The notes under the pieces were generated by a model. The model was not told the DNA's origin, searched no databases, and saw nothing but the letters and a program-made list of their open reading frames with translations. Below, piece by piece: positions 1 through 20,645 of a stretch of 64,000 nt of DNA (position 1 is the first letter of the stretch; each line of letters opens with the position of its first letter). This stretch comes from Nostoc desertorum CM1-VF14 (GTDB lineage: Bacteria; Cyanobacteriota; Cyanobacteriia; Cyanobacteriales; Nostocaceae). The DNA lies in the NCBI GenBank assembly GCA_019359245.1, contig JAHHHR010000012.1:58243-122242 (forward strand). The letters are read 5' to 3'. The translations under genes and the position numbers were made by a program.

Positions 1-424
1 TACCTGTTTGTTTAGCTTTTTGTACTATTGGTCTAATTCCACTTTTATCAGCAGCATTTAAAACAATGATGTCAGTATTGGCAGCAGTAAAATTTTCAAT
101 TTGATTGGCTTGTTGGTTGAGGTCATAGGCACTGGAAGCTATAATAACATTGACATCTTTTCCACCAATTTTCTTCGCTTCTGCCTCAACTGCTTGACCC
201 ATAACAACGAAGAAAGGGTTACTTAAATCGCCAACGGTGAAGGCAACCGATCGCAACTTTTTATCCCCAGTGGCGGTTTTACTTCCTGCACTAGTATTGA
301 TAGCAGTTGTAGTATCAGTGTTAGTAACAGTGTTGTCATCGGGAGAACTATTTGTACAGCCGATAAGGCTACCACTAATGATACTTAGTATGCTAGCTGC
401 GATTACAATTTTTCTCACATTCAT
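1..424 (-). CDS. Periplasmic sugar-binding lipoprotein of an ABC transporter (PBP type 1); N-terminal part only, the rest lies beyond the window start
   Basis: Hand translation of the minus strand from ATG (rc of 422-424) gives MNVRKIVIAASILSIISGSLIGCTNSSPDD...KKLRSVAFTVGDLSNPFFVVMGQAVEAEAKKIGG..., open to position 1. Lipobox LIGC. Clear paralog of the 596..1609 product (GDLxNPF, EAKKIGG, NQIENFTAANTD). It is absent from the ORF track because it has no stop in the window. Confidence 0.8.
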   Translation of the reverse strand, partial: MNVRKIVIAASILSIISGSLIGCTNSSPDDNTVTNTDTTTAINTSAGSKTATGDKKLRSVAFTVGDLSNPFFVVMGQAVEAEAKKIGGKDVNVIIASSAYDLNQQANQIENFTAANTDIIVLNAADKSGIRPIVQKAKQTG

Positions 425-540
425 ATATCTCCTAAAAGCCATTTTGATTTACACCGAATTCGGAACCGATGTATTTTTTAAACAGGGTCAAAGATTCTAA
501 CCCTCCCGTATCAAGCCTTTTTCTATGCGTTGTAATTACC

Positions 541-561
541 AATTACGAATTACAAATTACG
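541..561. repeat. Heptamer tandem repeat AATTACG/AATTACA x3 (STRR-like)
   Basis: Read directly: aattacg aattaca aattacg. The same unit recurs at 8510-8530. Confidence 0.6.
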
Positions 562-595
562 TAGCTTGCTTCTCGCCGGAGGCGAGTATTACAAA

Positions 596-1609
596 CTACC
601 AGCCTTTGTAGCTGCTAAGGTTTTCTCTGGTAACCAACTTGACTGGAATCAGAATGTTAGATGACTCAAGTTTTTTGCCCTGGATGATATCATTTCCCAA
701 CTGAACTGCTTTTTGGGCCATCCCGGCGGGATTTTGAGCAGCAGTTGCAGCAAACAGACCATCTTTGTCTTCCATTGCTTTGGTTGCATCTGGCGAACCG
801 TCAACCCCAACGATAAAAAATTCATTACGTCTTGCTTGTGTAGCGGCTAAATCTGCACCAACACCGCTTTGATCGTTAGTGGCAAAAACGGCATCAATTT
901 TCGGAAAGGTTGTGAGCAAATCGCTCATAACTCTGAGTCCGCCATCCCTAGTCCCTTCTGCATTTTGGTTTTTAGAGATGAGTTTGATATCAGGATATTT
1001 GGACAATGACTCTTCACAGCCACTCACTCGCTGATTTATTGAGTCCATCGGAGTCCCGTTGAGGATGACTACACTACCTTGAACTTTGAGGCGATCGGCA
1101 ATATATTGACAAGCAATCTCACCAGCCTGGGTATTGTTGGAGCTAATCATTGCATCCACATCTGCATCAACGGCTGAATCTACTGCAATCACAACCTTAC
1201 CTGCAAGCCTTGCTTGGTCAATTACCGGTTTAACTCCTTTTTTATCAACTGCACTGATGATAATTAAATCAGTATTTGCAGCAGTGAAATTTTCAATTTG
1301 ATTAGTCTGTTGATTCAGATCAAAAGCACTGGAAACCGCATTAACTCTAATATTACCCCCGATTTTCTTCGCTTCTGTCTCAGCCCCTTTTTGCACTGCA
1401 TTATAAAAAGGGTTGCCTAAGTCACCCAAAGCGACACCGATTGTTTGCAATTTTCTATTTGGAGCATTAGCCTGATTCTCTAAACTAGCGTTGGTAGCAG
1501 TGTTAGTACCAGTATTATTAGCAGTGTTGTCGTTTTGAGCGCCATTTGTGCAACCAACAACAGCGAAACCTAATATGCCAAGTATTAGCGAAAATCTATT
1601 CATATTCAT
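596..1609 (-). CDS. Sugar ABC transporter substrate-binding lipoprotein (RbsB/PBP1-like); candidate inositol or uronate binding protein
   Basis: 337-aa ORF with signal peptide plus lipobox (FAVVGCTNG) and an Asn/Thr-rich linker. The body is typical of ribose/inositol-type periplasmic binding proteins. It sits next to inositol/uronate catabolic genes. Confidence 0.85.
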   Translation of the reverse strand: MNMNRFSLILGILGFAVVGCTNGAQNDNTANNTGTNTATNASLENQANAPNRKLQTIGVALGDLGNPFYNAVQKGAETEAKKIGGNIRVNAVSSAFDLNQQTNQIENFTAANTDLIIISAVDKKGVKPVIDQARLAGKVVIAVDSAVDADVDAMISSNNTQAGEIACQYIADRLKVQGSVVILNGTPMDSINQRVSGCEESLSKYPDIKLISKNQNAEGTRDGGLRVMSDLLTTFPKIDAVFATNDQSGVGADLAATQARRNEFFIVGVDGSPDATKAMEDKDGLFAATAAQNPAGMAQKAVQLGNDIIQGKKLESSNILIPVKLVTRENLSSYKGW

Positions 1610-2695
1610 CTATTTTTAACAACGGATTTAAATTCAAAAAGGTCAAAAGAAGATAAGTTTGCCAAGTTATCGCAAGATGAGCTATGTCTAAAAATTTCAG
1701 ACAGAAGCTAGCACTACTAGTAGATTTAGCAATTTAAACTCCTTCCAAAAGTTTAATAATGTGACCTAACTTGAGCTAGTGCTATTAATTGCCCTAAATC
1801 GAATGGTTTGTTTTTTAAAGCAAAACTATGAGCGTTACACTACTTCAAAAAATCACTTTTTTTTTGTAAAAATACATTTGGAAGCGTGTGGGATAAAAAC
1901 AGATATTAACTAAAACGAAAATTAGTAGAGCCTAATGTTATGAGAATTGAAAATTTGTGTTTCCTTTTAGATTATTTCAGTTTAACCTGCATGATTGTAA
2001 ATATGATCCCCGTTTATTGAACTTTACAAAACCAAGAAAACTATTCCATTTCTATGTATTTTAATTTTTTCCCACTAGAGTATTTGCGAAAAATTAAGTA
2101 ATTTTCAGCTTAGTAGAGTTTAAAAAACTTAACACCTTTAACTCAAGTTGAGTTTGGGTAAGTTAATCTTCTCAAAGGAAAAATTTTGCTTTAAATCTAT
2201 CCTTTAGGGGTAGAAATACATAGCCCATTACCATACGCGAAAATCCTCGTGTTTTATTTTTGGAGTTTACTCAAATACACCTGCCAAGTGTGCTTATTAG
2301 CTATACTAATTGGTCAGAGCTAATCTTGTTATATCTCGATCAGAATAATTCTTTGGATATAGAGAGAAGAAATACCAAAAAAGTCATTATTACCCTATTG
2401 TCGCTGTTGTCAAGATGTGAAAGAACGGACGCGATAAGTAGTTCTTACCTGTTTAGTTTCTCTGGTAATTAAAGAAAATTTGAGCCAATAGCGATAAACT
2501 TTAGGACATCCGCATAGATATTTTATAAGTTTATAACTGGCAATGATTTTTTCTTGGAAAATATTTTACTGGTTTAGGCTTGCCGAAGAATTGTTATTCA
2601 TCATTAGCTAGAAATATTCGCAATCTCCACAAGTTCAATCAGTTAAAATTTGTAAGGAATGTTTGAAATTCTTTACCTTTATTACTAGGAAAAAT

Positions 2696-3592
2696 TTAGA
2701 ATCTCAAACTTCTGGGTAAATATTTAGCCGCTAAATCTTCATAGTAAGGCTTTAATTTTTGCCAGTCTGGAGGATTAGGGTTTTTTGAATACAAATCGTA
2801 GGGATTGAATAACTTCACCCATTTAAACATTTCTTTATCGTGTTTATCCATCAAATGTTCGTAAGCATTTTCACGATGTTGAGGATAAAATGAGTGATAG
2901 CGAAGGATATACAACGCAGATTCGGGCAAGTAGTTTTTCATCATGTAATATACATACTCATCATGCCCCCATGACATATGTACATTACTCAAACCACAAT
3001 TCGGCTCGTAAACACCATATACGGAGTTATATATAGGGTTACTATAATCAGGGTTTTGTTTGAAAAATTCTGAAAAAACAATCTTATCAGAAAATGCACA
3101 ACCTACAGGATAGGTATCGCCTACTGTAGCCCATTGGGGTTCACCAAATAAGCAAAGTACCTTCCCCATATCATGAAACAAGCCAGTAAGTACCATCCAG
3201 TCTGGGTAACCATCAGCGCGAATGGCTTCTGATGTTTGCAATAGGTGCTGTAATTGGTCTAAGTCTGTATCAGGATCTGAATCATCAACCAATTGATTCA
3301 AAAACTCTAATGCATCCCAGACAGACATTTCTTTCTTATCCAACTTCAGAAAGTCTTCTTTTTTATCTAACACAAAATCATATGTTTGATTGATATGATT
3401 TAACCGATAAAACTCTTTCACCGTCTCTCTAGTCGGCGTTTCGTAATTCCTGTACTCTTTGGTGGTTTTACCTTCTTTAATTATGCTGTCCGGATTGGGA
3501 TAGCGATTAAGTAAGTCTTCTTCCCATTCTTCTAGTGAATGTAAGGGATTGTTTTGAGTTTGTTCGATGGCATTATTTAGAGTTTGAGACAT
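2696..3592 (-). CDS. myo-Inositol oxygenase (MIOX, HD-domain di-iron oxygenase)
   Basis: 298-aa ORF with MIOX-like motifs FHDMGK, YPVGC, WGHDEYVYY, RYHSFYP and a C-terminal PYY..L..KYLP. Confidence 0.9.
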   Translation of the reverse strand: MSQTLNNAIEQTQNNPLHSLEEWEEDLLNRYPNPDSIIKEGKTTKEYRNYETPTRETVKEFYRLNHINQTYDFVLDKKEDFLKLDKKEMSVWDALEFLNQLVDDSDPDTDLDQLQHLLQTSEAIRADGYPDWMVLTGLFHDMGKVLCLFGEPQWATVGDTYPVGCAFSDKIVFSEFFKQNPDYSNPIYNSVYGVYEPNCGLSNVHMSWGHDEYVYYMMKNYLPESALYILRYHSFYPQHRENAYEHLMDKHDKEMFKWVKLFNPYDLYSKNPNPPDWQKLKPYYEDLAAKYLPRSLRF

Positions 3593-3647
3593 AGCTTGTT
3601 ACTTGTCGATATTGATTTGTTAAATAGTACTTTCGCACTCCACCTTA

Positions 3648-3661
3648 TGCACAGGTGTGCA
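3648..3661. promoter_or_regulatory. Candidate LacI-family operator (TGCACAGGTGTGCA, one mismatch from palindrome)
   Basis: 56 bp upstream of the MIOX start. It is related to the perfect palindromes at 3689-3706 and 5152-5165. Confidence 0.5.
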
Positions 3662-3688
3662 AAACCTGTATTGGACTTATTTTTTATT

Positions 3689-3706
3689 CTTGCACACGTG
3701 TGCAAG
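3689..3706. promoter_or_regulatory. Candidate LacI-family operator, perfect 18-bp palindrome CTTGCACACGTGTGCAAG
   Basis: Read directly. It lies 97 bp upstream of the MIOX start, with its centre about 43 bp from the 3648-3661 site. Confidence 0.6.
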
Positions 3707-4048
3707 AATGTGTGTTAAGTTTCTTTTCGTCGTATTTTGTTAAATTTGCTTGGAGCGAAAGAAATTAGCAATTAGGTAACACATTGACAAAAGACATCTC
3801 CAGAAATTGATTCTGCGTTACCTGAAACCCTTGTAAGACCTTGCATTGCAACGTCTATACAATCTTTTTCACTCCTATGTCGAAAATAAATAAAATCTGT
3901 TAGATGCTTTCTCGGCAACAACTAAATTATACCGCATTTATACTTAAACGGGCATAACTATACTAAAATATAAGCTCATCTTTTATTTTAAAGACGTAGG
4001 CAAAATAATATATATTAATCTTTTTTACCAACCTTATGCAGAGGGGTA

Positions 4049-4372
4049 TCAATTTGTCAATTGTATAGCAAGAGAATACTTAACAAGATTAGCCAACTCT
4101 TGTAATTGGCTTATCGCTTCTGCACCCTCCAACTTCATTAATTCGCGATCGTCCCATAATTCCATCCAGGTTATCCCGTAATCAGACACTAAAAACCGAA
4201 TCAGGTGTTTTTCTCCTAGGCTAACCATAAATGAAGCACTCTGCATTTGGTCACCGCATATATAACAAGACGCAGTATAGCCACGCCGCTCAAGTATAAT
4301 TGTCAAGGCTTGCAGGTTCATTACCAAGTCTTGGGCGAATTCCTGATGCTGTTGCGCTAATCTTAAAAACAC
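4049..4372 (-). CDS. Hypothetical small protein (about 90-107 aa); start uncertain (GTG at 4372 or internal ATG)
   Basis: ORF lying between gluconokinase and MIOX on the same strand. No family recognised. Confidence 0.45.
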   Translation of the reverse strand: MFLRLAQQHQEFAQDLVMNLQALTIILERRGYTASCYICGDQMQSASFMVSLGEKHLIRFLVSDYGITWMELWDDRELMKLEGAEAISQLQELANLVKYSLAIQLTN

Positions 4373-4509
4373 TTTTCTCTCCTACCACTCCACTTATGTG
4401 GTTAATTTTGAAATTTCTTTAGATTTACGTTCGACGTAATTTAATTACCAAAAGTTCCTGTTTTTGTAAAGACGTTATTAATCTTAATCTTGCGCTTGTA
4501 ACCAATAAG

Positions 4510-5010
4510 CTAAATTTCTAAAGCCGTTCTAATGTTTTGGACAATTATCTGGGGTGGTTGTGCAACATCCATAGATAAGATGTTTAATGGCTCTTCAAGA
4601 GTATTAAACTGACTGTTGAGGAGTTTTTCACTCATGTAATGATTGCTACGCTCTTGTAGCCGCTTTTGAATCAGCTCATAAGACCCTTTGAGGTAAACTA
4701 GCTTGATGCGTTCGCTATCCAATACCAGAAATTGCCGATAACTATCTTTTAAAGCCGAACACGCCAGCACCACATTTTTATTTTCTTGCAGCCAATGTTT
4801 TATAGCTGTTTGTAAATCTTGCAACCAAGGCATCCTGTCAGCTTCGCTTAGAGGGATACCGCACCGCATTTTCTCAACATTCTCTGGCGAGTGGAAAGCA
4901 TCAGCATCGCTAAACTCCCATTGTAACAAGTCTGCTAAGAGTTTTCCTATTGTGGTTTTGCCAGAGCCAGATACACCCATTACGATAATAATCATTGACT
5001 GCTTAATCAT
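4510..5010 (-). CDS. gntK: Gluconokinase (GntK/IdnK family)
   Basis: 166 aa with P-loop GVSGSGKTT. DADAFHSPENVEKMRCGIPLSEADRMPWL matches the GntK DxDxxHxxxNxxKMxxGxPLxDxDRxPWL pattern. Confidence 0.9.
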   Translation of the reverse strand: MIKQSMIIIVMGVSGSGKTTIGKLLADLLQWEFSDADAFHSPENVEKMRCGIPLSEADRMPWLQDLQTAIKHWLQENKNVVLACSALKDSYRQFLVLDSERIKLVYLKGSYELIQKRLQERSNHYMSEKLLNSQFNTLEEPLNILSMDVAQPPQIIVQNIRTALEI

Positions 5011-5151
5011 ATTTTACTTAAGAAAAGTTAAGTTATTAAAATCGAGGTAGAAGTCAGGACTACTGATAACAATTTACTCAAGCTACTTGTCTACCTAGTT
5101 AATTTTGTACAGTTTGACAAATAACGATTATTTTCTATAATAAAATATATA

Positions 5152-5165
5152 TGCACACGTGTGCA
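5152..5165. promoter_or_regulatory. Candidate LacI-family operator, perfect 14-bp palindrome TGCACACGTGTGCA
   Basis: Located in the gntK / lacI-like divergent region, 142 bp upstream of the gntK start. A MITE-like insertion separates it from the lacI-like start. Confidence 0.6.
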
Positions 5166-5177
5166 ATAGTTAAAACT

Positions 5178-5423
5178 TTAAGAGGATGTTTGAAAAGTCC
5201 TCTTGCCGATATCAAAAGTTCTAAATCCTCTAAATCCACGGTACTTGCTCCACTTTGGTAAACCCCTTCTCTACGGAAGGCGCTAGCCTCTCCCTTTGGG
5301 TGAAGACCACATTGGCTTCCCTAAAAAAGGTGGACTTTAATTCCGGTTCCCCGCTTTTTAAGGGGGTTAAGGAGGATCTAAAAGTGCCTAAAGTCACAGC
5401 GAAAAACTTTTCAAACAACCTCT
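5178..5423. mobile_element. MITE-like non-autonomous repeat with hairpin-forming ends (AAGAGGATGTTTGAAAAG ... CTTTTCAAACAACCTCT)
   Basis: It aligns by eye end-to-end with the reverse complement of 11518-11684, apart from an extra internal segment of about 85 bp. The terminal inverted repeats have one mismatch. The track ORF 5230..5418 lies wholly inside it. Confidence 0.65.
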
Positions 5424-5433
5424 AAGATAAAAA

Positions 5434-6468
5434 ATGAATAAACGAAGAATTTCTATTGAAGATATTGCTCGGAGAGCAGGCGTTTCTCATTCTACTGTTT
5501 CACGTGCTTTGCGAGATAACGCTCTTATTAGCCCTAAAGTGCGAGAAGAAATTAAGCAACTGGCGCAAGAAATGAACTATGTGCCGAATGCGATCGCTCA
5601 AAGCTTGCAAAATAAACGTACTAATACTATTGGAGTAGTAGTAACTTCAATAGCAGATCCCTTTTTTGCTGAGGTAGTAGATGGAATTGAACAGATAGCT
5701 AGACCCGCAGGCTTGAGTGTTTTGTTAAGTGCTTCACACCGAGATTTTGAGCAGGAAATAGCAGCTATAAATACTTTTCATCGCCGGAGAGTGGATGGAA
5801 TCTTAGTAGCCGACTCACGAATTAGTAAACAGCACACCAAGCAACTGACACAAATTGCAGTGCCAACAGTTCTAATTAACAGCCAGACCGAAGAGCAATC
5901 AGAGATATTTCACTCAGTGGCAATAGACGATCGCTTAGGTGCTAGATTAGCCACAGAGCATTTAATAAGTCTGGGACATACCGCTATTGGTTATCTAGGT
6001 GTAGGCGATCGCAGCAGGTCTAATCAGCAGCGCCTAGAAGGATATCGAATGGCTCTTGCTGAAGCTGGTTTACCACAAAATCCTGATTGGGTTGCAATTA
6101 GTGATCAAGAGAATACCAGAACCAGCGATGTTATGACTGGACAACAGATGCTATCTAAACTATTGGCTGCTGAGGTAACAGGCATCTTTTGTTACAACGA
6201 TATGGTGGCGATTGGCGCTTTATTAGCCTGCCAAGAACTAGGTATTTTAGTACCACGAAGTTTAAGCCTGGTTGGATTTGATGGTATTGCTTTGGGCTGT
6301 TACGTTACACCTGCACTTACGACAGTCAGCCAGCCAATGTTAGAAATTGGTGGCTATGCCATGCAAATGTTACTCGATTTATTAGAAGAAAAAACTGTAG
6401 AAAACCGCGTTTTATCTCCTTCTCTATTACAACGTGGCAGTAGTGCAGCATTAAGAAAGTCATCTTAA
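5434..6468 (+). CDS. LacI-family transcriptional regulator
   Basis: 344 aa with an N-terminal HTH (IEDIARRAGVSHSTVSRALRD) and a periplasmic-binding-protein-like effector domain. Confidence 0.9.
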   Translation: MNKRRISIEDIARRAGVSHSTVSRALRDNALISPKVREEIKQLAQEMNYVPNAIAQSLQNKRTNTIGVVVTSIADPFFAEVVDGIEQIARPAGLSVLLSASHRDFEQEIAAINTFHRRRVDGILVADSRISKQHTKQLTQIAVPTVLINSQTEEQSEIFHSVAIDDRLGARLATEHLISLGHTAIGYLGVGDRSRSNQQRLEGYRMALAEAGLPQNPDWVAISDQENTRTSDVMTGQQMLSKLLAAEVTGIFCYNDMVAIGALLACQELGILVPRSLSLVGFDGIALGCYVTPALTTVSQPMLEIGGYAMQMLLDLLEEKTVENRVLSPSLLQRGSSAALRKSS

Positions 6469-6881
6469 ACCATATCTACCGTCATTGAAGAAGGCAGGAG
6501 GCAGAGGGCAGAAGGCAGAAGGTTGAATTTAGAAGGGGATTCAACACCGTACTTAATTGGGACCACCAAATTTTCAATTTGGTGGGGGTCTTAAACCCTT
6601 ACTCCCTCCGGTCATAGCAGAGGAAAGGAAGACGCTCGAATACTCGCTCTAAGCGAAGCACCCGAAGGGTATACGCTGCGCTATCAGAATTCCCTTGTGC
6701 CTCCTGCCCTCTGCCTTTCTTGATAACTTCACCCTAAACTTTAATCCGTTGGCTCATTGGTTTTGAGGCTGGGGCTTGGGTAGTTAAACTGAATTGAAAA
6801 AATTGGAAATTTTTACTCTCTGCATGAGGCAAATTCATCTTTTCACTCAGCAATACTAAAAATTTTAAGCAAACAAAAATT

Positions 6882-8300
6882 ATGTTAACCAAAAAACCAA
6901 GTTTATCTCCCGATCGCTGCTTTTCTCCAGAACCAGTTCAAAGACGGCTAGCTCATCAATTTTTTGATAGCATATCTGCGCTACCCCTGGTTTGTCCACA
7001 CGGACACGTAGATCCAGCCTTGTTAGCTAATCTCGCAGCCCGTTTTGGTTCACCGACTGAATTATTTATTATCCCTGATCATTACCTTTTGCGAATGCTT
7101 TATAGTCGGGGCGTGCCTCTGCAAGCTTTGGGCATACCTACTAGTGATGCACCAACAGAAACAGACCATCGCAAAATCTGGCAATTGTTCGCCGAACATT
7201 TTTATCTATTTCGAGGTACTCCGTCTGGGTTGTGGCTCAAAGACGAACTAACTAATGTCTTTGGCGTAGATGAACCTTTAAACTCTCGCAATGCCGGACA
7301 TATCTATGATTACCTGGAACGTCTCTTAGCTTTGCCTGAGTTCTCCCCCCGTGCTTTATTTAAACGCTTTAACATCGAAGTGCTTTGTACTACCGATGCA
7401 GCTAGTGATAGCCTAGAGAATCAGCGATCGCTCCACGAAGAAGGTTTTACTCAAATCAGACCGACTTTTCGACCAGATGCAGTAGTTAACCTAGATGCTC
7501 CTAGTTGGCGCGAAAATATTACTAAATTGGAAAGCGCTGTAGGTAGAGAAATTAGCACCTACGCCACTTTTGTACAAGCTTTAGAAGAACGTCGGGCTTT
7601 CTTCAAAAAAATGGGCGCAACCGCTACCGATCAAAGTGCAGCTACACCTTATACCACACGCCTTTCTGACTACGAAGCAGAAGCTATCTTTTCTAGAGCA
7701 TTAATCGGCAAGCTGAATCCAGGAGATGTAGAGCATTTTACCGGTCATATGTTCATGGAAATGGCTCGGATGAGTGTAGAAGATGGCTTGGTGATGCAAA
7801 TGCATTGTGGTGTTATGCGTAACCACAACCCGGCTTTCTTTGAGAGATTCGGATCTGATAAAGGTGCTGATATTCCGTTGAAAATAGAATGGACTCAAAA
7901 TCTGCATCCGTTGTTGTCAGCTTACGGTAATGACAAACGCTTTAGTTTAATTCTTTTTGGCATGGATGAAAGCACTTACAGCCGAGAATTGGCTCCGCTA
8001 GCTGGTCATTATCCCACTGTATTGCTCGGGCCGCCTTGGTGGTTTCATGACAGTGTAAATGGCATGGAACGCTACTTCAATCAGGTAATGGAAACTGCTG
8101 GACTTTATAATACTGCCGGGTTTAATGATGATACCCGCGCTTTCGTTTCTATCCCGGCTCGTCATACAGTCTGGCGGCGAGTAGCTTGTAATTGGTTAGC
8201 TGGATTGGTAACGCGAGGATTAGTTGAGGAAGAGGAAGGGTATGATATGGCCCGCGCTTTAGCTTACGACCTCGCGAAGAGTGCTTACAAACTGGACTAA
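6882..8300 (+). CDS. uxaC: Glucuronate (uronate) isomerase
   Basis: 472 aa with typical UxaC length and N-terminus (PLVCPHGHVDP) and a C-terminal PWWF..S motif. Confidence 0.9.
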   Translation: MLTKKPSLSPDRCFSPEPVQRRLAHQFFDSISALPLVCPHGHVDPALLANLAARFGSPTELFIIPDHYLLRMLYSRGVPLQALGIPTSDAPTETDHRKIWQLFAEHFYLFRGTPSGLWLKDELTNVFGVDEPLNSRNAGHIYDYLERLLALPEFSPRALFKRFNIEVLCTTDAASDSLENQRSLHEEGFTQIRPTFRPDAVVNLDAPSWRENITKLESAVGREISTYATFVQALEERRAFFKKMGATATDQSAATPYTTRLSDYEAEAIFSRALIGKLNPGDVEHFTGHMFMEMARMSVEDGLVMQMHCGVMRNHNPAFFERFGSDKGADIPLKIEWTQNLHPLLSAYGNDKRFSLILFGMDESTYSRELAPLAGHYPTVLLGPPWWFHDSVNGMERYFNQVMETAGLYNTAGFNDDTRAFVSIPARHTVWRRVACNWLAGLVTRGLVEEEEGYDMARALAYDLAKSAYKLD

Positions 8301-8331
8301 TACCAATTTTCCCAAATCAGGCTATTAGAAT

Positions 8332-8489
8332 TAGCCCTTTCAAGGTGATTCAGAAAATCTCTTTTTTTCTCTTTGTGTTTTCTGTGCCTCTGCGGTTTAA
8401 AAGTAATTTATTTAACCACAGGGGACACAGAGTAAATAGCTCAAACAGGAATTTATTAATCAAACTTTTTACCCACCTTGAAAGGGCTA
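8332..8489. repeat. Small element bounded by perfect 16-bp inverted repeats (TAGCCCTTTCAAGGTG / CACCTTGAAAGGGCTA)
   Basis: Read directly. It sits in the uxaC-SDR intergenic region, with the AATTACG heptamer repeat immediately downstream (8510-8530). Confidence 0.55.
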
Positions 8490-8536
8490 GTCCTAATATT
8501 GATTTTTTTAATTACGAATTACGAATTGAAAATAAG

Positions 8537-9373
8537 ATGTCAGACTTAATTTTGAATAAACTTTTTAGCCTAAAAGAGCAGGTAGCAGTCGTCACAGGCG
8601 GCTCTGGTGTGCTTGGTGGGGCTATGGCACGGGGTTTAGCCCTTGCTGGAGCGCGAGTTGTGGTTTTGGGTCGCAATGAAGCAAGGGCGGGTGCAGTAGT
8701 AGCTGATATTACTGCTAACGGTGGAGAAAGCATAGCTGTGCTGGCAGATGTTAGCGATCGCTCCCAATTAGAAATAGCCAGGGATGTAATTATACAGCGT
8801 TGGGGTCAAATAGATATTTTGGTAAACATGGCCGGCGGTAATATTCCGGCTGCCACAATTACCCCTGATGCGACTATTTTTGATATGCCACACACGGCTT
8901 TTGAGGAAGTAGTTAGCTTAAACTTACTCGGTACTCTACTACCCAGCCAAGTTTTTGGTCAAGCAATGATAGAAAAAAATCAGCCCTATGGTTGTATTGT
9001 CAATATTTCTTCTATGTCTGCAATTCGGGTGATCAGCCGTGTGGTTGGCTATTCAGCTGCTAAAGCCGGGATAGATAACTTTACTCGCTGGTTAGCCGTC
9101 GAACTCGCCCAAAAGTATGGAGATGGAATGCGAGTAAATGCGATCGCGCCAGGTTTCTTTATTGGGGAACAAAATCGAGATTTACTCCTAAATACAGATG
9201 GCAGTTTGACCGTTCGCGGGCAAAAAATTATCGAGCATACCCCCGCCGGACGTTTTGGAAAACCGGATGAATTACTCAGCACTTTAATCTGGTTATGCAG
9301 TTCTGGTTCTAGTTTCGTCAACGGAGTAGTTGTACCTGTAGACGGTGGGTTTAGTATTTACAGTGGAGTTTAA
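8537..9373 (+). CDS. Short-chain dehydrogenase/reductase; candidate fructuronate (D-mannonate) oxidoreductase of the SDR type
   Basis: I trimmed the track ORF 8345..9373 to the ATG at 8537 (MSDLILNKLF..), because the upstream 64 codons translate repeat DNA. Motifs: TGGSGVLG, SS....YSAAK, PG.F. The 278-aa length matches SDR-type UxuB/YjmF (from memory). The function is inferred from context. Confidence 0.8.
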   Translation: MSDLILNKLFSLKEQVAVVTGGSGVLGGAMARGLALAGARVVVLGRNEARAGAVVADITANGGESIAVLADVSDRSQLEIARDVIIQRWGQIDILVNMAGGNIPAATITPDATIFDMPHTAFEEVVSLNLLGTLLPSQVFGQAMIEKNQPYGCIVNISSMSAIRVISRVVGYSAAKAGIDNFTRWLAVELAQKYGDGMRVNAIAPGFFIGEQNRDLLLNTDGSLTVRGQKIIEHTPAGRFGKPDELLSTLIWLCSSGSSFVNGVVVPVDGGFSIYSGV

Positions 9374-9375
9374 TC

Positions 9376-10632
9376 ATGTATTCACTGGCTGTAACTAACG
9401 GGACACTTTCAAATCAGCAAGTTTCCGAGCTAGTTCATCAAGCTTTGACAGATCCTAAGTTGGATGGACAGCGTATTTTAGTATTAATTCCAGATGGGAC
9501 TCGTACTGCTCCCATCCCTCAAATGTTTCGATTGCTTCATCAGGAGTTGGGTAAAAGGGTAGCGGCTCTAGATTTTTTGATCGCTCTGGGTACACATAAT
9601 CCCATGAGTCAAGAACAAATCAATCGCTTGGTGGGGGTGACACAGGAGGAGCGAGAGACAATCTTTAAAAAAGTTCAGATATTTAACCACCTTTGGAATG
9701 AACCGAATACCTTTATTTCTTGCGGAGTAATTTCGGCAGATGAAATAGCAGATATCAGCCGGGGAATGCTACATCAGGCAGTTGAAGTCCGTGTCAACAA
9801 ATTGGTAACAGAATACGATTTAATAATGATTTGCGGTCCGGTTTTTCCGCACGAAGTTGTCGGTTTCTCTGGTGGAAATAAATACTTTTTTCCCGGCATT
9901 GGTGGTCAGGAAGTAATTGATATATCACATTGGTTAGGTGCATTAATCACCTGCTACGAAATTATTGGTACACCGGGAATAACACCAGTTCGGCGCTTGA
10001 TTAACCGAGCCGCTAACCTGATTTCTACCCCGAAACTTTGCTTGGCGATGGTGGTTGCACCCAAAACAAATCAGCTAGCTGGACTTTACATAGATCAACC
10101 AGAGTCAGCCTGGGAAGCTGCTGCAAAATTATCAGCCAAACTGCATATTAAATATGTAGATCAGCCTTTTAAACAAGTGCTTTCAGTAATGCCCCAAATG
10201 TATGACGACATTTGGACAGCAGCTAAAGGAATGTACAAGCTAGAGCCAGTAGTGGCCGACGGAGGCGAAGTAATTATATACGCCCCTCACATTACCGAGT
10301 TTAGCTATACACATGGCGAAATCCTAGCCCAAATTGGTTATCATGTGCGGGATTACTTCCTCAAACAGTGGGATGAATTCCAAGAGTATCCCGGTGGAGT
10401 GCTGGCCCATAGTACTCATTTAAAAGGTATGGGTACATTTGATCCCATAGAAGGGGAACAAGCGCGGATTCGTGTGACTTTAGCTACTGGCATTTCTGCC
10501 GAACGGTGTGCTGCTCATAACTTGAACTATCGTGATCCGGCTACCATTAGACCCTCTGAATGGGCTAACCGCGAGGATGAAGGTATCTTGCTTGTGCCAA
10601 AGGCTGGTGAAATACTATACCGTACAATATAA
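9376..10632 (+). CDS. LarA-family (lactate racemase domain, nickel-pincer-nucleotide dependent) 2-hydroxyacid racemase/epimerase
   Basis: 418 aa with PDGTR, LGTH and PHEVVGFSGGNKYFFPG....ISH. The His-x9-Lys-x15-His spacing equals LarA His174/Lys184/His200 as I recall it. The start is 2 nt after the SDR stop. Confidence 0.8.
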   Translation: MYSLAVTNGTLSNQQVSELVHQALTDPKLDGQRILVLIPDGTRTAPIPQMFRLLHQELGKRVAALDFLIALGTHNPMSQEQINRLVGVTQEERETIFKKVQIFNHLWNEPNTFISCGVISADEIADISRGMLHQAVEVRVNKLVTEYDLIMICGPVFPHEVVGFSGGNKYFFPGIGGQEVIDISHWLGALITCYEIIGTPGITPVRRLINRAANLISTPKLCLAMVVAPKTNQLAGLYIDQPESAWEAAAKLSAKLHIKYVDQPFKQVLSVMPQMYDDIWTAAKGMYKLEPVVADGGEVIIYAPHITEFSYTHGEILAQIGYHVRDYFLKQWDEFQEYPGGVLAHSTHLKGMGTFDPIEGEQARIRVTLATGISAERCAAHNLNYRDPATIRPSEWANREDEGILLVPKAGEILYRTI

Positions 10633-10665: not shown

Positions 10666-10686
10666 CGGCTGGTCAGCCGGATTTTG
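10666..10686. terminator. Possible weak bidirectional terminator hairpin (CGGCTG-GT-CAGCCG then GATTTTG)
   Basis: Lies between the convergent LarA-like and Uma2 genes. The stem is short. Confidence 0.3.
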
Positions 10687-10708: not shown

Positions 10709-11434
10709 TTAGGACAAATTATTCGGGTCAATACCCTGAGATTGCAAATAAGCAATCAGCCGTTCTTTTTCCTGGCGTTCTTGTTCAATCTGTTCCACAG
10801 CCCACGGTAATAAATTACCAGCTTGATCCCACCAGCGCAACCAATAACCACTTCGCCCTTCTTTTGTTCCTTGCCAAGTTCCTAAAAATAAGCCCATTAC
10901 ATCAATCCAATGGCGGCCATTTTCATCGGGTTGCTTTAACTCATAGCGTTTATTTTCCAGTTGATAGAATTCTAATAAACCGCCATCTGGTTCAAAAATT
11001 ACGTAGATGGGAATTTGCAAAATTTGCTCGTAGAAAAACCATTTTCCTGGTGGATAGGTTCGCTTGACCGAATATTCTCCCCCCTCAGTATCGGATAAAA
11101 ATTCGATGGAGATCGCTGGGATATCCCCTTCTAAATTGGGTGTATAACTTTTGCGATTACCTACAACTTGATTAACCGACGGCACATAAACCCAGTCAGG
11201 TGCTTTGGCAATAAATTGGCCGTTGACTGTCGCACAAAGACCAAAGTTTGAAGCTATCAACATCTGGGGTTGGATGAATCCAGTGATTTCTAAGCTTTCA
11301 CGCAAAGCACCAGCCAAAAGTGGCTGACCTGTATTCTCCACTGGTTCATCCTCTAGTTTAAAATCTTTGGGTAAGGCTTCCCAAGAAATTACCAGTTCAG
11401 TTTGGAATTTGGCTTCACTGAGTTGGGTTGCCAT
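10709..11434 (-). CDS. Uma2-family (DUF820) putative endonuclease
   Basis: 241 aa. The central IEFLSD..... block and overall pattern are typical of the cyanobacterial Uma2 family. Confidence 0.8.
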   Translation of the reverse strand: MATQLSEAKFQTELVISWEALPKDFKLEDEPVENTGQPLLAGALRESLEITGFIQPQMLIASNFGLCATVNGQFIAKAPDWVYVPSVNQVVGNRKSYTPNLEGDIPAISIEFLSDTEGGEYSVKRTYPPGKWFFYEQILQIPIYVIFEPDGGLLEFYQLENKRYELKQPDENGRHWIDVMGLFLGTWQGTKEGRSGYWLRWWDQAGNLLPWAVEQIEQERQEKERLIAYLQSQGIDPNNLS

Positions 11435-17588: not shown

Positions 17589-19847
17589 ATGGAGAATGCC
17601 ACACTTAAGCTGCGCGGTATGAGTTGCGCTTCCTGTGCCAGAAGTATTGAAGATGCTATCAGTTCTGTCCCAGGTGTGAATGAATGTAGTGTGAATTTTG
17701 GGGCAGAACAGGCAACAGTTGATTATGACCCCAGAACAACAGATTTACAAGCCATCCAAGATGCGGTGGATGCAGCAGGTTATTCTGCCTATCCCCTCCA
17801 AGAACAAAACTTGATGACTGGGGAAGATGATGAAAAAAGATATCGCCAGAAAGAATCCCGTGATTTAGTGCGAAAGGTGACGGTAGGGGGCATCATTGGC
17901 ACTGTGCTGGTGATTGGCTCACTACCGATGATGACAGGGTTACAGCTGCCTTTGATTCCAATGTGGCTGCATAACCCTTGGCTGCAATTAGTCCTTACTA
18001 CTCCTGTACAGTTCTGGTGCGGTTACTCTTTTTACGTTAATACCTGGAAAGCTTTCAAACGCCATACTGCAACAATGGATACCTTAATAGCTTTGGGTAC
18101 AAGTGCCGCATATTTCTATTCACTATTTGCCACTTTATTTCCTGGCTTTTTCATGGCTCAGGGATTGATGCCAGATGTGTATTATGAAACTGCGGCGATT
18201 GTAATTACCTTGATTTTGTTAGGGCGGCTGTTTGAAAATCGCGCCAAAGGCCAAACTTCAGAAGCTATCCGCAAGCTGATTGGTTTGCAGGCGAAAACAG
18301 CACGGTTAATTCGCAACGGGCGAGAAGTAGATGTACCCATTGAACAAGTACAAATTGGCGATGTAGTGTTGGTTCGTCCTGGGGAGAAAATTCCGGTTGA
18401 TGGCGAAGTAGTTGACGGGACATCCACTGTTGATGAAGCAATGGTGACTGGCGAAAGTGTCGCAGTGAAAAAGCAACCAGGGGATGAAGTTATCGGAGCA
18501 ACCATCAACAAAACTGGAAGTTTTAAGTTTCGGGCGACAAGAGTTGGTAAAGACACTGTACTGGCGCAGATTGTCCAACTAGTGCAACAGGCTCAAGGCT
18601 CAAAAGCTCCCATTCAGAGACTAGCAGACCAAGTTACAGGGTGGTTTGTGCCGGCGGTAATTGCGATCGCTATCTTTACCTTTATCATTTGGTACAACAT
18701 GATGGGTAATGTCACCCTGGCGTTGATTACCACAGTCGGGGTGTTAATTATCGCTTGTCCTTGTGCGTTGGGTTTAGCCACACCAACTTCGGTGATGGTG
18801 GGTACTGGGAAAGGTGCAGAAAACGGCATTTTAATTAAAGGAGCCGAAAGCCTAGAAATAGCACATCAGATTCAAACAATTGTGTTAGACAAAACCGGCA
18901 CAATTACCCAAGGTAAACCGACAGTTACAGATTTTCTCACAGTTAACGGTACACTTAACGGCAACGAAATTAAGCTGATACAACTAGCAGCATCCTTAGA
19001 ACGTAATTCTGAACACCCATTAGCAGAAGCAGTTGTTCGATACGCCCAATCTCAGGAAGTAACCTTAGCAGATGTCAAAGATTTTGAAGCCGTTGCAGGT
19101 AGTGGTGTACAAGGTATCGTTACTAACCGTTTCGTACAAATTGGTACACAACGCTGGATGGAAGAGTTGAGTATTAACACTCAAGCCTTGCAACAAGATA
19201 AAGAACGCTTAGAATACCTCGGTAAAACAGCAGTTTGGTTAGCAGTTGACGGCGAAATCAAAGGATTGATGGGGATTGCTGATGCTATTAAACCCACTTC
19301 CACCCAGGCTGTGAGAGCGTTGCAAAAACTTGGTTTAGAAGTTGTCATGCTCACAGGTGATAACCGCCGCACCGCAGAAAGTATCGCCCGTGAAGTTGGT
19401 ATCAAGCGGGTTTTGGCAGAAGTCCGCCCCGATCAAAAAGCTGCTACAGTGCAAGCACTACAAGCAGAAGGCAAAATCGTCGCAATGGTTGGTGATGGTA
19501 TTAATGATGCACCAGCCCTAGCTCAAGCCGATGTCGGAATTTCAATTGGTACTGGTACAGATGTGGCGATCGCAGCTAGCGACATTACCTTAATCTCTGG
19601 TGATTTGCAAGGCATAGTTACAGCAATTCAACTCAGCCGCGCCACAATTCGCAATATTCGCCAAAACTTATTCTTCGCTTTCATTTACAACGTTGCTGGT
19701 ATTCCCATCGCCGCCGGAATTCTTTTTCCCATCTTTGGTTGGTTACTGAACCCAATCATCGCCGGTGCAGCAATGGCCTTTAGTTCGGTTTCTGTAGTTA
19801 CTAATGCATTACGTTTACGTAGCTTCCAACCTAAAACACTTGGGTAG
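17589..19847 (+). CDS. copA: Copper(I)-translocating P1B-type ATPase
   Basis: 752 aa with an N-terminal HMA domain (GMSCASCA), [20 protein letters not shown], and YN / MxxSS in the last helices (the Cu(I) subgroup signature as I recall it). Confidence 0.9.
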
Positions 19848-19858
19848 AGGAAATAACA

Positions 19859-19939
19859 ATGTTGAATCAAGTCATATTTTTCGGGACTTTAGCAGGATTT
19901 GGATTTCTGCTAGGAGCAATTTCAGGAACTTTAGTATAG
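19859..19939 (+). CDS. Candidate 26-aa single-helix membrane peptide (MLNQVIFFGTLAGFGFLLGAISGTLV)
   Basis: Found by hand; it is below the track length cutoff. GAGGA lies 7 nt upstream of the ATG. It starts 12 nt after the ATPase stop and ends 38 nt before the cupredoxin gene. Confidence 0.35.
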   Translation: MLNQVIFFGTLAGFGFLLGAISGTLV

Positions 19940-19976
19940 CTGGTAACTTACTCAGATTCACGTAGGAGGTTTTTCA

Positions 19977-20555
19977 ATGTTGAACAAAACAGCACTTATC
20001 GGGAGTATAGCCAGTTTAGGAGTTGTATTCTCAATTGCATCTGGTGAAGCAGCTGCACAAAACTCCCACCAGGCGCACTCATCTGCAACAGTCCAAACCA
20101 ATCAATTTCAACGCATTGAGCAGCCATTAGGGAACAAAGTAGCCGTCACCCTCGGCGGATTGGGACTAATTGGCTTAGAAATTTGGTGGTTCTTGCTGAG
20201 TAAACCCAAGTCTCAGAAAGCAGTTGCAACGAGTGGAAATATTCAGGAAGCAACCGTCACCGTTGATGGGGGATATGAGCCAAGTCGAATTGTAGTGCAA
20301 GCCGGGAAACCAGTACGACTAAAATTTGAACGCAAAGATCCCAGCAGTTGTTTAGAACAAGTTTTGATTCCAGACTTTCACATTGCCGCAGATTTACCGC
20401 TTAATCAAGCTACTACTGTGGAATTTACCCCTGAAACAACAGGTGAATATACTTTCACTTGCGGTATGAATATGTTTCGTGGTGCGCTCGCAGTCCAAGC
20501 CGCAAACACTACTGAAGAAAAGTTGTCCACTCAAATCAGTGTCTCATCAGCTTGA
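19977..20555 (+). CDS. Membrane-anchored cupredoxin-like domain protein
   Basis: 192 aa with a signal/TM segment and a C-terminal domain: VTVDGGYEPSRIVVQAGKPVRLKFERKD..SC....IPDF...FTP...GEYTFTCGMNM. This is typical of cupredoxin_1-type accessory proteins of copper ATPases. Confidence 0.75.
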   Translation: MLNKTALIGSIASLGVVFSIASGEAAAQNSHQAHSSATVQTNQFQRIEQPLGNKVAVTLGGLGLIGLEIWWFLLSKPKSQKAVATSGNIQEATVTVDGGYEPSRIVVQAGKPVRLKFERKDPSSCLEQVLIPDFHIAADLPLNQATTVEFTPETTGEYTFTCGMNMFRGALAVQAANTTEEKLSTQISVSSA

Positions 20556-20575
20556 TGGAATGATCCTTTTCATAC

Positions 20576-20607
20576 TTGACTCTCCAGTTGAATGGAGAGT
20601 CTAGGAT
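20576..20607 (+). promoter_or_regulatory. MerR-type promoter: TTGACT, 20-bp spacer containing CTCTCCAGTTGAATGGAGAG, then TAGGAT
   Basis: Read directly, ending 39 nt upstream of the MerR-family gene, which implies autoregulation. Confidence 0.6.
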
Positions 20608-20645
20608 AAGATCAGTAATCATATCTCACTGAGGGTTTAGTTAGT

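Follow-up and report, generated by a model that had tools for sequence, protein, structure and literature searches.

What is already known of gene clusters of this kind? In symbiotic Nostoc, the hrm (hormogonium-regulating) locus has been described since 1997, in accounts that give its role as halting the production of motile filaments inside the plant host (Cohen & Meeks 1997). Its genes hrmE, hrmK, hrmR, hrmI and hrmU have been published as an inositol oxygenase, a gluconate kinase, a LacI regulator, a glucuronate isomerase and a mannonate oxidoreductase, respectively (PMC5987646, Fig. 6; Cohen & Meeks 1997; Campbell et al. 2003); hrmA appears in the hrm literature as 'unknown' and is the sole hrm gene with no printed function annotation. 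For Thermotoga maritima, a route from fructuronate through mannonate and gluconate to 6-phosphogluconate is cited as having been proposed in 2012 (PMC6978723, PMC7583248). In 2020, the LarA-family enzymes GntE1 and GntE2 were shown to have mannonate/gluconate epimerase activity in vitro (PMC7583248), as the first-pass annotation of the present DNA had noted. Its further belief that the complete pathway had not been described is contradicted both by the published hrm locus and by the Thermotoga proposal.

The hrm locus and the adjoining frt genes

Positions 2-10632 of the window (the whole 64-kb stretch of DNA that was analysed) are the hrm locus of symbiosis-competent Nostoc and the start of the adjoining frt sugar-transport genes (Table 1). 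This identification follows from gene order: taken together, the window and two further loci (L001 and L003) read OprB, Gfo/Idh/MocA, MFS, permease, ATPase, two binding proteins, MIOX, DUF1815, GntK, LacI, UxaC, SDR and LarA homolog, which agrees gene for gene with the published hrm/frt map (PMC5987646, Fig. 6). The genes on which the first-pass annotation built its proposal (sugar-binding lipoproteins, MIOX, UxaC, SDR, LarA homolog, GntK and LacI) are all present where it had placed them, their family scores exceed the curated cut-offs, and the SDR is indeed of the fructuronate-reductase class; of the two lipoproteins, the second is present only as its first 147 codons, running off the left window edge. 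The DUF1815 gene was missing from that annotation.

Table 1. Positions of genes and candidate control elements in the hrm/frt region of the window.
Feature	Position	Strand	Evidence
frtA2, second sugar-binding lipoprotein, 5' part (147 codons)	2..442 (442 to 2)	-	Signal peptide, lipobox LIGC, Peripla_BP-like; matches second binding protein of L001
frtA1, sugar-binding lipoprotein of CUT2-type ABC transporter	596..1609	-	PF13407 (Peripla_BP_4), E = 1e-52
AT-rich, ORF-free hrmE/frtA1 spacer, GC 0.31	1610..2695	.	Without ORF of at least 80 aa
hrmE, myo-inositol oxygenase (MIOX)	2696..3592	-	PF05153, 362 bits, full length
Two candidate HrmR operators upstream of hrmE	3648..3704 (3648-3661, one mismatch; 3691-3704, perfect TGCACACGTGTGCA)	.	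Palindrome count
DUF1815 gene ('unk' in published map)	4049..4372	-	PF08844, E = 8e-50; same position in 8 Nostocales loci
hrmK, P-loop gluconokinase (GntK/IdnK type)	4510..5010	-	TIGR01313, 156 bits vs cut-off 113.75
hrmR promoter TTGACA-16-TATAAT (5114-5141), then perfect candidate HrmR operator (5152-5165)	5114..5165	+	12/12 promoter matches
hrmR, LacI-family repressor	5434..6468	+	LacI HTH and Peripla_BP_3 domains
hrmI, glucuronate isomerase (UxaC)	6882..8300	+	NF002794, 487 bits vs cut-off 387
hrmU, SDR-type D-mannonate oxidoreductase (fructuronate reductase)	8537..9373 (ORF from 8345)	+	NF006132 'D-mannonate oxidoreductase', 386 bits vs cut-off 281
hrmA, predicted LarA-family hexonate 2-epimerase (GntE, group 19), nickel-pincer-nucleotide (NPN)-dependent	9376..10632	+	Lar_N domain
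Terminator-like hairpin followed by T-run, 3' of hrmA	10666..10679	+	Consensus match only

The lipoprotein genes are named frtA1A2 in the published map (PMC5987646, Fig. 6), and according to the literature the ABC system transports fructose and the MFS gene encodes a glucose permease. The best NCBIfam match of the frtA1 product is RbsB-like and below the cut-off, and the protein is 63% identical to its paralog. Next after frtA2 in the syntenic loci come genes for an ABC ATPase, permease and MFS sugar porter, then Gfo/Idh/MocA and OprB genes. Two candidates for roles in inositol metabolism were rejected here: the lipoproteins as a demonstrated inositol uptake system, since they are FrtA1/FrtA2 of the published fructose transporter, and the Gfo/Idh/MocA oxidoreductase, which lies just past the left window edge in the syntenic genomes, as an IolG equivalog (score 76 bits, cut-off 355). 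Within the window, genes for IolG, UxuA, KdgK and Eda are absent, as first annotated.

In HrmE, all six iron ligands (H116, H140, D141, H210, H233 and D266) and the substrate lysine (K144) are intact, and the protein matches mouse MIOX (2HUO) at E = 4e-75. MIOX is widespread in bacteria, with many Bacteroidota proteins among the 8000 scored matches, and a Francisella operon combines MIOX with uxaC (PMC3479022); the earlier view of MIOX catabolism as mostly eukaryotic is thus not borne out. The regulator gene appears as hrmR/frtR in PMC5987646 and PMC8461463. The ATG at position 8537 is probably the true start of hrmU, because its homologs are 278-284 aa long and begin at the matching position.

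HrmA and the predicted route to 6-phosphogluconate

The hrmA gene starts 3 nt past the hrmU stop codon. Among solved structures, its product best matches 4NAR (GntE2 of T. maritima, TM0442; E = 8e-65, full length), and it retains all of the catalytic (H74, H159 and K169) and NPN-binding residues together with the complete group-19 gluconate 2-epimerase signature. It is identical at 79 of 94 positions to the N-terminus of Npun_F5335, the Nostoc punctiforme ortholog, which a 2020 supplement places in group 19, 'gluconate 2-epimerases'. We found no literature linking that entry to hrmA among the searchable papers. Here hrmA is assigned, on sequence evidence, to the GntE group-19 gluconate 2-epimerases; its product looks like a nickel-dependent enzyme of this kind and would complete a route from inositol/glucuronate to 6-phosphogluconate.

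We consider it moderately probable that the hrm/frt region encodes such a route under repression by HrmR. HrmR would keep two divergent transcription units off by binding TGCACACGTGTGCA at the hrmE and hrmK/hrmR promoters. Upon derepression, myo-inositol and O2 would be converted to D-glucuronate by HrmE, a point at which imported glucuronate could also join; HrmI would isomerize D-glucuronate to D-fructuronate, and HrmU would reduce this to D-mannonate. HrmA, which as a LarA-family enzyme would need the nickel-pincer nucleotide cofactor, would then invert C2 to yield D-gluconate, which HrmK would phosphorylate to 6-phosphogluconate for entry into the oxidative pentose phosphate pathway. Gene identities, active sites, neighbourhoods and operator sites are observed, whereas all of the substrates, the order of epimerase and kinase, and the entry of inositol under physiological conditions are inferred. 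These five steps, as first annotated, remain the best biochemical reading of the locus in view of the active sites, the group-19 GntE signature, the neighbourhoods and the shared operator, but the system to which they belong is a described one. Genes for LarB, LarC and LarE were found neither in the window nor near hrmA in any locus examined, which counts against the proposed route. The weak affinity for D-mannonate of GntE1, the one group-19 enzyme assayed, likewise speaks against it.

Candidate operators, neighbourhoods and alternative readings

The 14-bp palindrome occurs three times in the 64-kb window, against 0.08 copies expected, each time at the promoter of hrmE or of hrmK/hrmR. It is conserved upstream of MIOX in the Nostocales loci; a 62-bp stretch comprising the hrmR promoter and operator is about 90% conserved across Nostocales, whereas the remaining spacer is not. 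Outside cyanobacteria, three loci (Anaerolineae/Syntrophothermus) have the same palindrome close upstream of their LacI gene. The predicted operators lie at exactly the places, 5' of hrmR and hrmE, at which HrmR is reported to bind (PMC5987646, citing Campbell 2003). The hrmE/frtA1 spacer has a promoter-like site (TTGACA-16-AATAAT at 2413-2386, minus strand), and its frtA1-adjacent part is conserved in other Nostocales.

Of the 11 Nostocales loci with enough flank, 10 keep the set and order of genes (MIOX, LacI, UxaC, SDR and LarA homolog), with GntK in 9 of the 10. Because of this recurrence and the excess of the palindrome, the cluster exceeds what chance would produce. The 72 non-cyanobacterial loci of the HrmA clade all have the group-19 signature; 6-phosphogluconate dehydrogenase is a neighbour in 30 of them, UxaE in 21, UxaC in 10-12 and the SDR in most. 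Across 87 loci, an SDR mostly lies directly upstream of the LarA homolog. This architecture is that of the T. maritima gnd-uxaRED-gntEK operon, and the association of the epimerase clade with 6-phosphogluconate dehydrogenase and UxaE supports 6-phosphogluconate as the end-point.

Could the locus instead serve signalling? The published model has the hrm enzymes turn a hormogonium-repressing factor of plant origin into a uronate-like metabolite, or make one themselves, so that HrmR is relieved and hormogonia are blocked, with the flow to 6-phosphogluconate incidental or absent. The published accounts prefer this synthesis of an inhibitor, as a hypothesis of their authors, over carbon catabolism. 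They describe over-infection of the host by hrmA and hrmU mutants, induction of the locus by Anthoceros extract and flavonoids, and a galacturonate-like compound that relieves HrmR binding; that inositol is not among these reported inducers and effectors also argues against inositol as the input. Moreover, the palindrome scan of the window found no HrmR operator in the hrmE/frtA1 spacer or at the frt genes, which is consistent with signalling and counts against the proposed route. However, the genes form a complete and stoichiometrically sensible catabolic chain with a kinase at its end, and close HrmA relatives from organisms without hormogonia adjoin 6-phosphogluconate dehydrogenase and sugar kinases. 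We therefore regard a purely signalling role as possible but rather unlikely; the signalling and catabolic readings are compatible if the signal is the flux or one of the intermediates.

A similarly tentative reading takes glucuronate as the physiological input, with a module for host-derived glucuronate or glucuronides to which MIOX was a late accessory entry. MIOX is absent from all 72 non-cyanobacterial loci and from one Nostocales locus (L017), and so seems to have been added to a module for glucuronate, which counts against the proposed route; the LacI-UxaC-SDR-epimerase core and the same operator exist without it outside cyanobacteria and in L017, and beta-glucuronidase and UxaC are among the published contexts of group 19. 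Its origin also appears separate: hrmE has a GC content of 0.37, against 0.44-0.46, and HrmE is closest to Bacteroidota proteins (77% identity), while the hrmU and hrmA products are closest to Chloroflexota (66-71%), which suggests that the locus was put together from two or more sources. Against glucuronate as the input, MIOX is kept in those 10 of 11 Nostocales loci, and its own pair of HrmR operators points to co-regulation with the core. No dedicated transporter for either inositol or glucuronate was identified at the locus, a finding that weighs on this reading and on the inositol route alike.

Least probable, we believe, is that the same net route proceeds through another epimerase substrate, with the kinase acting first and HrmA converting 6-phospho-D-mannonate to 6-phosphogluconate, or with HrmA acting on another hexonate or an aldarate: although the KM of GntE1, the only assayed group-19 enzyme, is so high for D-mannonate (120 mM) that its native substrate is uncertain and its authors propose an isomer or aldarate instead (PMC7583248), although Lactobacillus suebicus extracts contain a kinase acting on mannonate as well as a 2-epimerase for 6-phosphomannonate (PMC6978723), and although non-cyanobacterial group-19 loci have PfkB/PFK-family kinases and a HAD-like hydrolase beside the epimerase rather than a classical gluconokinase, the Nostoc kinase is of the GntK/IdnK type, above the family cut-off, mannonate is reportedly not used by Escherichia coli GntK (cited in PMC6978723), and both GntE1 and GntE2 epimerize free mannonate.

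Comparison with known systems

The catabolic route proposed here can be set against several described systems. The hrm locus of N. punctiforme ATCC 29133 has the same genes in the same order, beside frtA1A2BC, glcP, mviM and oprB (Gagunashvili & Andresson 2018, PMC5987646); the present locus is from another strain, with proteins 85-94% identical to those of other Nostoc, and the window ends inside frtA2. GntE1 of Corynebacterium glutamicum (LarAH19) is 47% identical to HrmA and has the same catalytic, NPN-binding and substrate-pocket signature in a group context that includes LacI and glucuronate isomerase; actinobacterial group-19 members often have larB/C/E adjacent, unlike the Nostoc locus.

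Like hrm, the gnd-uxaRED-gntEK operon of T. maritima combines an SDR fructuronate reductase, a LarA-type mannonate/gluconate 2-epimerase and a gluconate kinase leading to 6-phosphogluconate (Rodionova 2012; PMC3750489; PMC7583248). However, its GntE belongs to group 20 rather than group 19, its kinase is not of the P-loop GntK type of HrmK (the published group-20 context has a COG1070 sugar kinase), its regulator is the GntR-type UxaR rather than a LacI-type protein, and its input is galacturonate via UxaE rather than, as we propose, inositol via MIOX; UxaE and gnd are both absent from the Nostoc locus. In Francisella, the MIOX-xylT-uxaC-kdgA-kdgK-uxuA-uxuB operon (PMC3479022) likewise clusters MIOX with a glucuronate isomerase and a mannonate oxidoreductase for a predicted catabolism of inositol through glucuronate, but it ends via UxuA/KdgK/KdgA (Entner-Doudoroff-type) and has no LarA homolog or gluconokinase. 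The canonical myo-inositol pathway (IolG/IolE/IolD/IolB/IolC/IolJ) shares the presumed substrate, whereas none of its enzymes is encoded at the hrm locus. Finally, the L. suebicus route (PMC6978723) also leads from a uronate isomerase pathway to 6-phosphogluconate by C2 epimerization and phosphorylation, with these steps in the reverse order and with cell-extract biochemistry, rather than genes, as its evidence.

Gene content and identity of the locus

Which genes make up the left end of the window, and has their arrangement been seen before? The ORF listing and family scans recovered every gene that the first-pass annotation had named, at the positions tabulated below; both of its sugar-binding lipoproteins are real, but the second is partial, with only its first 147 codons inside the window. 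A DUF1815 gene missing from that annotation was also found. The UxaC, mannonate oxidoreductase and GntK/IdnK assignments all exceed the curated NCBIfam cut-offs. Because homologs of the SDR are 278-284 aa long, the true start of its gene is probably at 8537, the N-terminal extension of the ORF being spurious; 3 nt separate its stop from the start of the epimerase gene. In homology searches, the LarA homolog and MIOX both matched Nostoc sp. proteins at 94% identity, which places the window in Nostoc.

Features of the hrm locus and of the remainder of the window
Feature	Coordinates	Strand	Basis or content
Second lipoprotein (frtA2), 5' 147 codons	442 down to 2	-	translation
Sugar-binding lipoprotein (frtA1)	596-1609	-	Peripla_BP_4
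MIOX (hrmE)	2696-3592	-	PF05153, 362 bits
One-mismatch copy of palindrome	3648-3661		
Perfect palindrome	3691-3704		
DUF1815 gene	4049-4372		
P-loop gluconokinase (hrmK)	4510-5010	-	TIGR01313 GntK/IdnK, 156 bits (cut-off 114)
Perfect palindrome	5152-5165		
LacI regulator (hrmR)	5434-6468	+	LacI HTH and Peripla_BP_3
Glucuronate isomerase UxaC (hrmI)	6882-8300	+	NF002794, 487 bits (cut-off 387)
SDR (hrmU), ORF	8345-9373	+	NF006132 'D-mannonate oxidoreductase', 386 bits (cut-off 281)
LarA homolog (hrmA)	9376-10632	+	Lar_N domain, PF09861
Uma2-family putative endonuclease	10709-11434	-	
Copper-homeostasis cluster	17589-21059		heavy-metal P-type ATPase with HMA domain, cupredoxin-like protein, MerR-family regulator
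Four ORFs of 290-645 aa	21478-22356, 22499-23371, 25997-27934, 27931-29301		no Pfam match at E <= 1e-5
Polysaccharide-synthesis cluster	29531-63528		many GT1/GT2/GT4 glycosyltransferases, acyltransferases, DegT aminotransferase, WecG, ABC exporter, Bac_transf priming transferase fused to GT4 and STAS domains
1831-aa protein within that cluster	48223-53718		DUF4347, three NPCBM, FG-GAP repeats, glucose/sorbosone dehydrogenase domain

The pathway had been put forward as undescribed, a view that we abandon. The gene order of the window and of two syntenic Nostocales loci (L001 and L003) is that of the published hrm/frt map (PMC5987646, Fig. 6 legend), in which hrmE-(unk)-hrmK diverges from hrmR-hrmI-hrmU-hrmA beside frtA1A2BC-glcP-mviM-oprB. 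Beyond the left edge, these relatives carry the second binding protein, an ABC ATPase, a permease, an MFS sugar porter, a Gfo/Idh/MocA protein and OprB; the transporters beside hrm are described in the literature as fructose and glucose systems (PMC5987646). Work on hrm goes back to 1997, and the feature is therefore no novelty: it is the known hrm locus, every gene assignment except that of hrmA is already in print, and the lower shunt was also proposed earlier. The conservation of the neighbourhood was borne out, with MIOX, LacI, UxaC, SDR and epimerase genes together in 10 of the 11 Nostocales loci with enough flank (GntK in nine of those); one Nostocales locus, L017, is without MIOX.

Outside this locus the window encodes housekeeping functions, a cluster for copper resistance and a large one for exopolysaccharide, in which GC rises to 0.47-0.50 at the gene for the 1831-aa protein, versus 0.40 for the window. 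The Uma2-family gene lies directly downstream of hrmA, a position that is not conserved in other Nostocales hrm loci.

HrmA and the group-19 epimerases

The best match of HrmA among solved structures is 4NAR (E = 8e-65, residues 32-415); the scores of HrmA against lactate and malate racemases do not exceed 40 bits. The 4NAR protein is Thermotoga maritima TM0442, or GntE2, which interconverts D-mannonate and D-gluconate with a nickel-pincer nucleotide (NPN), and the other characterised enzyme, Corynebacterium glutamicum GntE1, is 47% identical to HrmA. This epimerase activity has been demonstrated for GntE1 and GntE2 only, and GntE1 is the sole assayed group-19 enzyme (PMC7583248). HrmA retains all of the NPN-binding residues (R43, K169 and H185, equivalent to LarA R75, K184 and H200) and all of the catalytic residues (D40, H74, H159 and K284, equivalent to LarA D72, H108, H174 and K298). 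Its pocket (E160, V161, W280, T281, A283, K284, G341, L343, A344, S346, T347, H348 and K350) reproduces exactly the group-19 substrate-pocket signature, namely EV in the loop, W-T-A-K in alpha11 and G-L-A-S-T-H-K/R in alpha14, and is the same as the row for the N. punctiforme ortholog Npun_F5335, which Desguin et al. (2020) placed among the group-19 'gluconate 2-epimerases' (PMC7583248 supplement). The N-termini of HrmA and Npun_F5335 share 79 of 94 residues. In the literature searchable here, no paper names hrmA alongside LarA, racemase or epimerase, and the link between this symbiosis gene and the enzyme family thus appears not yet to have been made in print. What is new here is that the 'unknown' HrmA is explicitly identified, from its sequence, as the probable epimerase closing the pathway. 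Neither the window nor the flanks (8-10 kb of hrmA) of 87 loci contain larB, larC or larE, a PP-loop motif search included.

What accompanies this epimerase in other genomes? When genomes were scanned with an HrmA alignment, 591 matches were confirmed, and we kept the 80 best loci. Among the matches listed, 72 loci are non-cyanobacterial (Chloroflexota, Acidobacteriota and others; 54-69% identity), and all 72 carry the group-19-type signature. None of these listed loci has MIOX and one has a P-loop GntK, and in the majority an HrmU-like SDR lies directly upstream of the epimerase. The same listed loci include 6-phosphogluconate dehydrogenase in 30 cases, mostly directly downstream on the same strand, the tagaturonate epimerase UxaE in 21, UxaC in 10-12, PfkB kinases in 11, PFK-family kinases in 11, Gfo/Idh/MocA proteins in 10 and a HAD-like hydrolase in 14. 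Their architecture is that of the T. maritima gnd-uxaRED-gntEK operon, the basis of a 2012 proposal in which gluconate, formed from mannonate by epimerisation, enters the pentose phosphate pathway. The adjacency of gnd is strong, independent backing for a 6-phosphogluconate end-point in this epimerase clade.

A live alternative to direct epimerisation of mannonate is that the kinase acts first and HrmA epimerises 6-phosphomannonate. In Lactobacillus suebicus extracts this order was measured, kinase first and then a 6-phosphomannonate epimerase; the KM of GntE1 for mannonate is 120 mM, and its authors suspected another substrate (PMC7583248); and the kinases and HAD-like hydrolase of the non-cyanobacterial loci also fit. 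Within the series L036-L086 of those loci, a PfkB or PFK-family kinase and a HAD-like hydrolase (about 310 aa, with a weak PF13419 match) replace the classical gluconokinase, for example in L063 (11275-13273), L056 (11430-13654) and L075 (7250-8353), a hint that intermediates of the pathway are phosphorylated there.

The predicted HrmR operator and the suggested origin of MIOX

The 14-bp palindrome TGCACACGTGTGCA is present in the window at three sites, two perfect and one with a single mismatch, versus 0.08 expected; no further site was found in the window at up to 3 mismatches. All three are confined to the region upstream of hrmE and that between hrmK and hrmR, and these positions coincide with the places, 5' of hrmR and hrmE, at which N. 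punctiforme HrmR is reported to bind (PMC5987646); TGCACACGTGTGCA is a predicted HrmR operator. The site at 5152 directly follows a perfect TTGACA-16-TATAAT promoter. Both operator regions form islands of conservation (82-90%) within otherwise diverged spacers, and the palindrome occupies the same positions across Nostocales loci. Before the frt genes and hrmI there is no HrmR operator, with 3 mismatches allowed. Because the sites lie upstream of hrmE and at hrmK/hrmR, we predict that MIOX shares its regulation with the uronate genes. We reject chance juxtaposition of the genes, given their conservation and common operator.

Exact copies of the palindrome also occur just upstream of a LacI gene in three UxaE-SDR-epimerase-Gnd operons of Syntrophothermus and Anaerolineae genomes (L044, 2717-2730; L075, 1172-1185; L085, 6551-6564), with second copies at 9858, 8402 and 13815, respectively; in L075 this second copy precedes a Zn-alcohol-dehydrogenase gene. 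It seems that regulator and operator move between phyla along with the enzyme module.

The hrmE-frtA1 spacer (1610-2695) is 1.09 kb long, AT-rich (GC 0.31) and without an ORF; its length is unchanged in the closest relatives (L001 and L011), and in more distant Nostocales only about 450 nt beside frtA1 are conserved. There is a near-consensus promoter at 2413-2386(-); if it serves frtA1, about 780 nt downstream, the transcript would have a long leader. A second perfect palindrome in this spacer, AACTCAAGTTGAGTT, is conserved in no locus and was dropped, and no structured RNA was found by Rfam matching over the whole window. The hrmK-hrmR spacer measures 423 nt versus about 185 nt in L001, the extra DNA lying within 5166-5433, and the hrmR-hrmI spacer (6469-6881) 413 nt versus about 120 nt. 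Part of the extra DNA, at about 5319-5427, is similar to stretches at other places in different Nostoc loci (L015 near 12951, L016 near 8999), which suggests that a small dispersed repeat has inserted.

The family match of HrmE is full-length, and the iron ligands of mouse MIOX (H98, H123, D124, H194, H220 and D253) correspond to H116, H140, D141, H210, H233 and D266, and the substrate lysine K127 to K144. The nearest non-cyanobacterial relatives are from Bacteroidota (77% identity), and the GC of the gene is 0.37 versus 0.44-0.46 for hrmIUA. This low GC and Bacteroidota affinity suggest a mosaic origin of the hrm locus: in Nostocales, a Bacteroidota-type MIOX and a gluconokinase seem to have joined a Chloroflexota-related LacI-UxaC-SDR-epimerase module. 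At its core the locus may be a glucuronate module, to which MIOX gives an accessory entry. The three Bacteroidota loci checked have an adjoining SSF transporter and, in some, LacI or a GDPD phosphodiesterase; they contain no uronate genes within 10 kb and offer no model for the Nostoc arrangement. In two loci from Pontibacter and Olivibacter (L090, 7864-11935; L091, 8808-12686), a MIOX 76% identical to that of Nostoc is paired with the sodium:solute symporter (SSF); the pair looks like an uptake-plus-oxygenase inositol module, of which we met no description in the papers searched.

The proposed pathway and its relation to known systems

How might these enzymes act together? In the route that we propose, all substrates and fluxes of which we infer from the gene identities, residues, neighbourhoods and operators observed here, release of HrmR would allow HrmE to convert myo-inositol to D-glucuronate, which HrmI would isomerise to D-fructuronate and HrmU reduce to D-mannonate; NPN-dependent epimerisation by HrmA would then give D-gluconate, and HrmK would form 6-phosphogluconate, entering the oxidative pentose phosphate pathway. 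The absences noted at first reading persisted in family scans: UxuA, KdgK and Eda are found neither in the window nor within 10 kb in Nostocales hrm loci, and the window has no IolG-type dehydrogenase. The Gfo/Idh/MocA protein just past the left edge in L001 and L003 was rejected as IolG (76 bits versus the TIGR04380 cut-off of 355). The Nostoc literature annotates mviM as 'inositol 2-dehydrogenase'; the best model for its product (L001, 19553-20599) is an Escherichia coli YdgJ-type oxidoreductase (277 bits), and the published name is probably inaccurate.

In the working model of the Meeks laboratory, the role of the hrm enzymes is not catabolic; they produce a metabolite inhibitory to hormogonium differentiation. 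The inducers reported for the N. punctiforme hrm genes are plant extract and flavonoids, the effector is described as galacturonate-like, and hrmA and hrmU mutants are reported to over-infect Anthoceros. This signalling model and our pathway can both hold, provided that the signal is an intermediate or the flux. We rejected, as the main reading, a route through L-gulonate and L-idonate in which C2 epimerisation, on the pattern of the glucuronate pathway of fungi, is followed by an IdnK-type kinase: UxaC would have no place in it, and HrmU scores 386 bits as a mannonate oxidoreductase versus 178 as a gluconate 5-dehydrogenase.

Few controls of cyanobacterium-plant and lichen symbiosis have been defined genetically. 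The hrm locus is one of them, and its biochemistry has so far been vague ("similar to sugar uronate metabolism"), with hrmA listed as unknown. If HrmA is a nickel-pincer gluconate 2-epimerase, the way from inositol or glucuronate to 6-phosphogluconate is complete in this locus and can be tested, which supplies concrete candidates for the host signal and the repressing metabolite and predicts a requirement for nickel and LarB/C/E. We speculate, while thinking it rather unlikely, that the plant 'hormogonium-repressing factor' works via the hrm pathway: host myo-inositol and/or glucuronate would be imported and turned into 6-phosphogluconate by HrmE, HrmI, HrmU, HrmA and HrmK, and either an intermediate or the ensuing oxidative pentose phosphate flux and NADPH supply would be the signal that halts hormogonium formation. 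If so, because HrmA would need the nickel-pincer cofactor, Nostoc would require nickel and LarB/C/E to regulate its infection of the plant. The long-standing questions of what the hrm genes do and of the nature of the hormogonium-repressing signal can now be tested directly. In addition, the poorly understood group 19 of LarA homologs gains a clear genomic tie to 6-phosphogluconate dehydrogenase and UxaE.

The hrm pathway is not a new kind of system, in that both halves were previously proposed in other bacteria. In Francisella, MIOX also lies beside uxaC, but catabolism finishes through UxuA/KdgK/KdgA (PMC3479022), whereas the Nostoc exit would be GntE/GntK. The lower shunt is itself a known proposal, the key activity of which has been demonstrated. 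What appears to be new, judging from the genes and their predicted operator, is that a phototroph joins a MIOX front end to an exit through GntE/GntK and places both under a single LacI operator.
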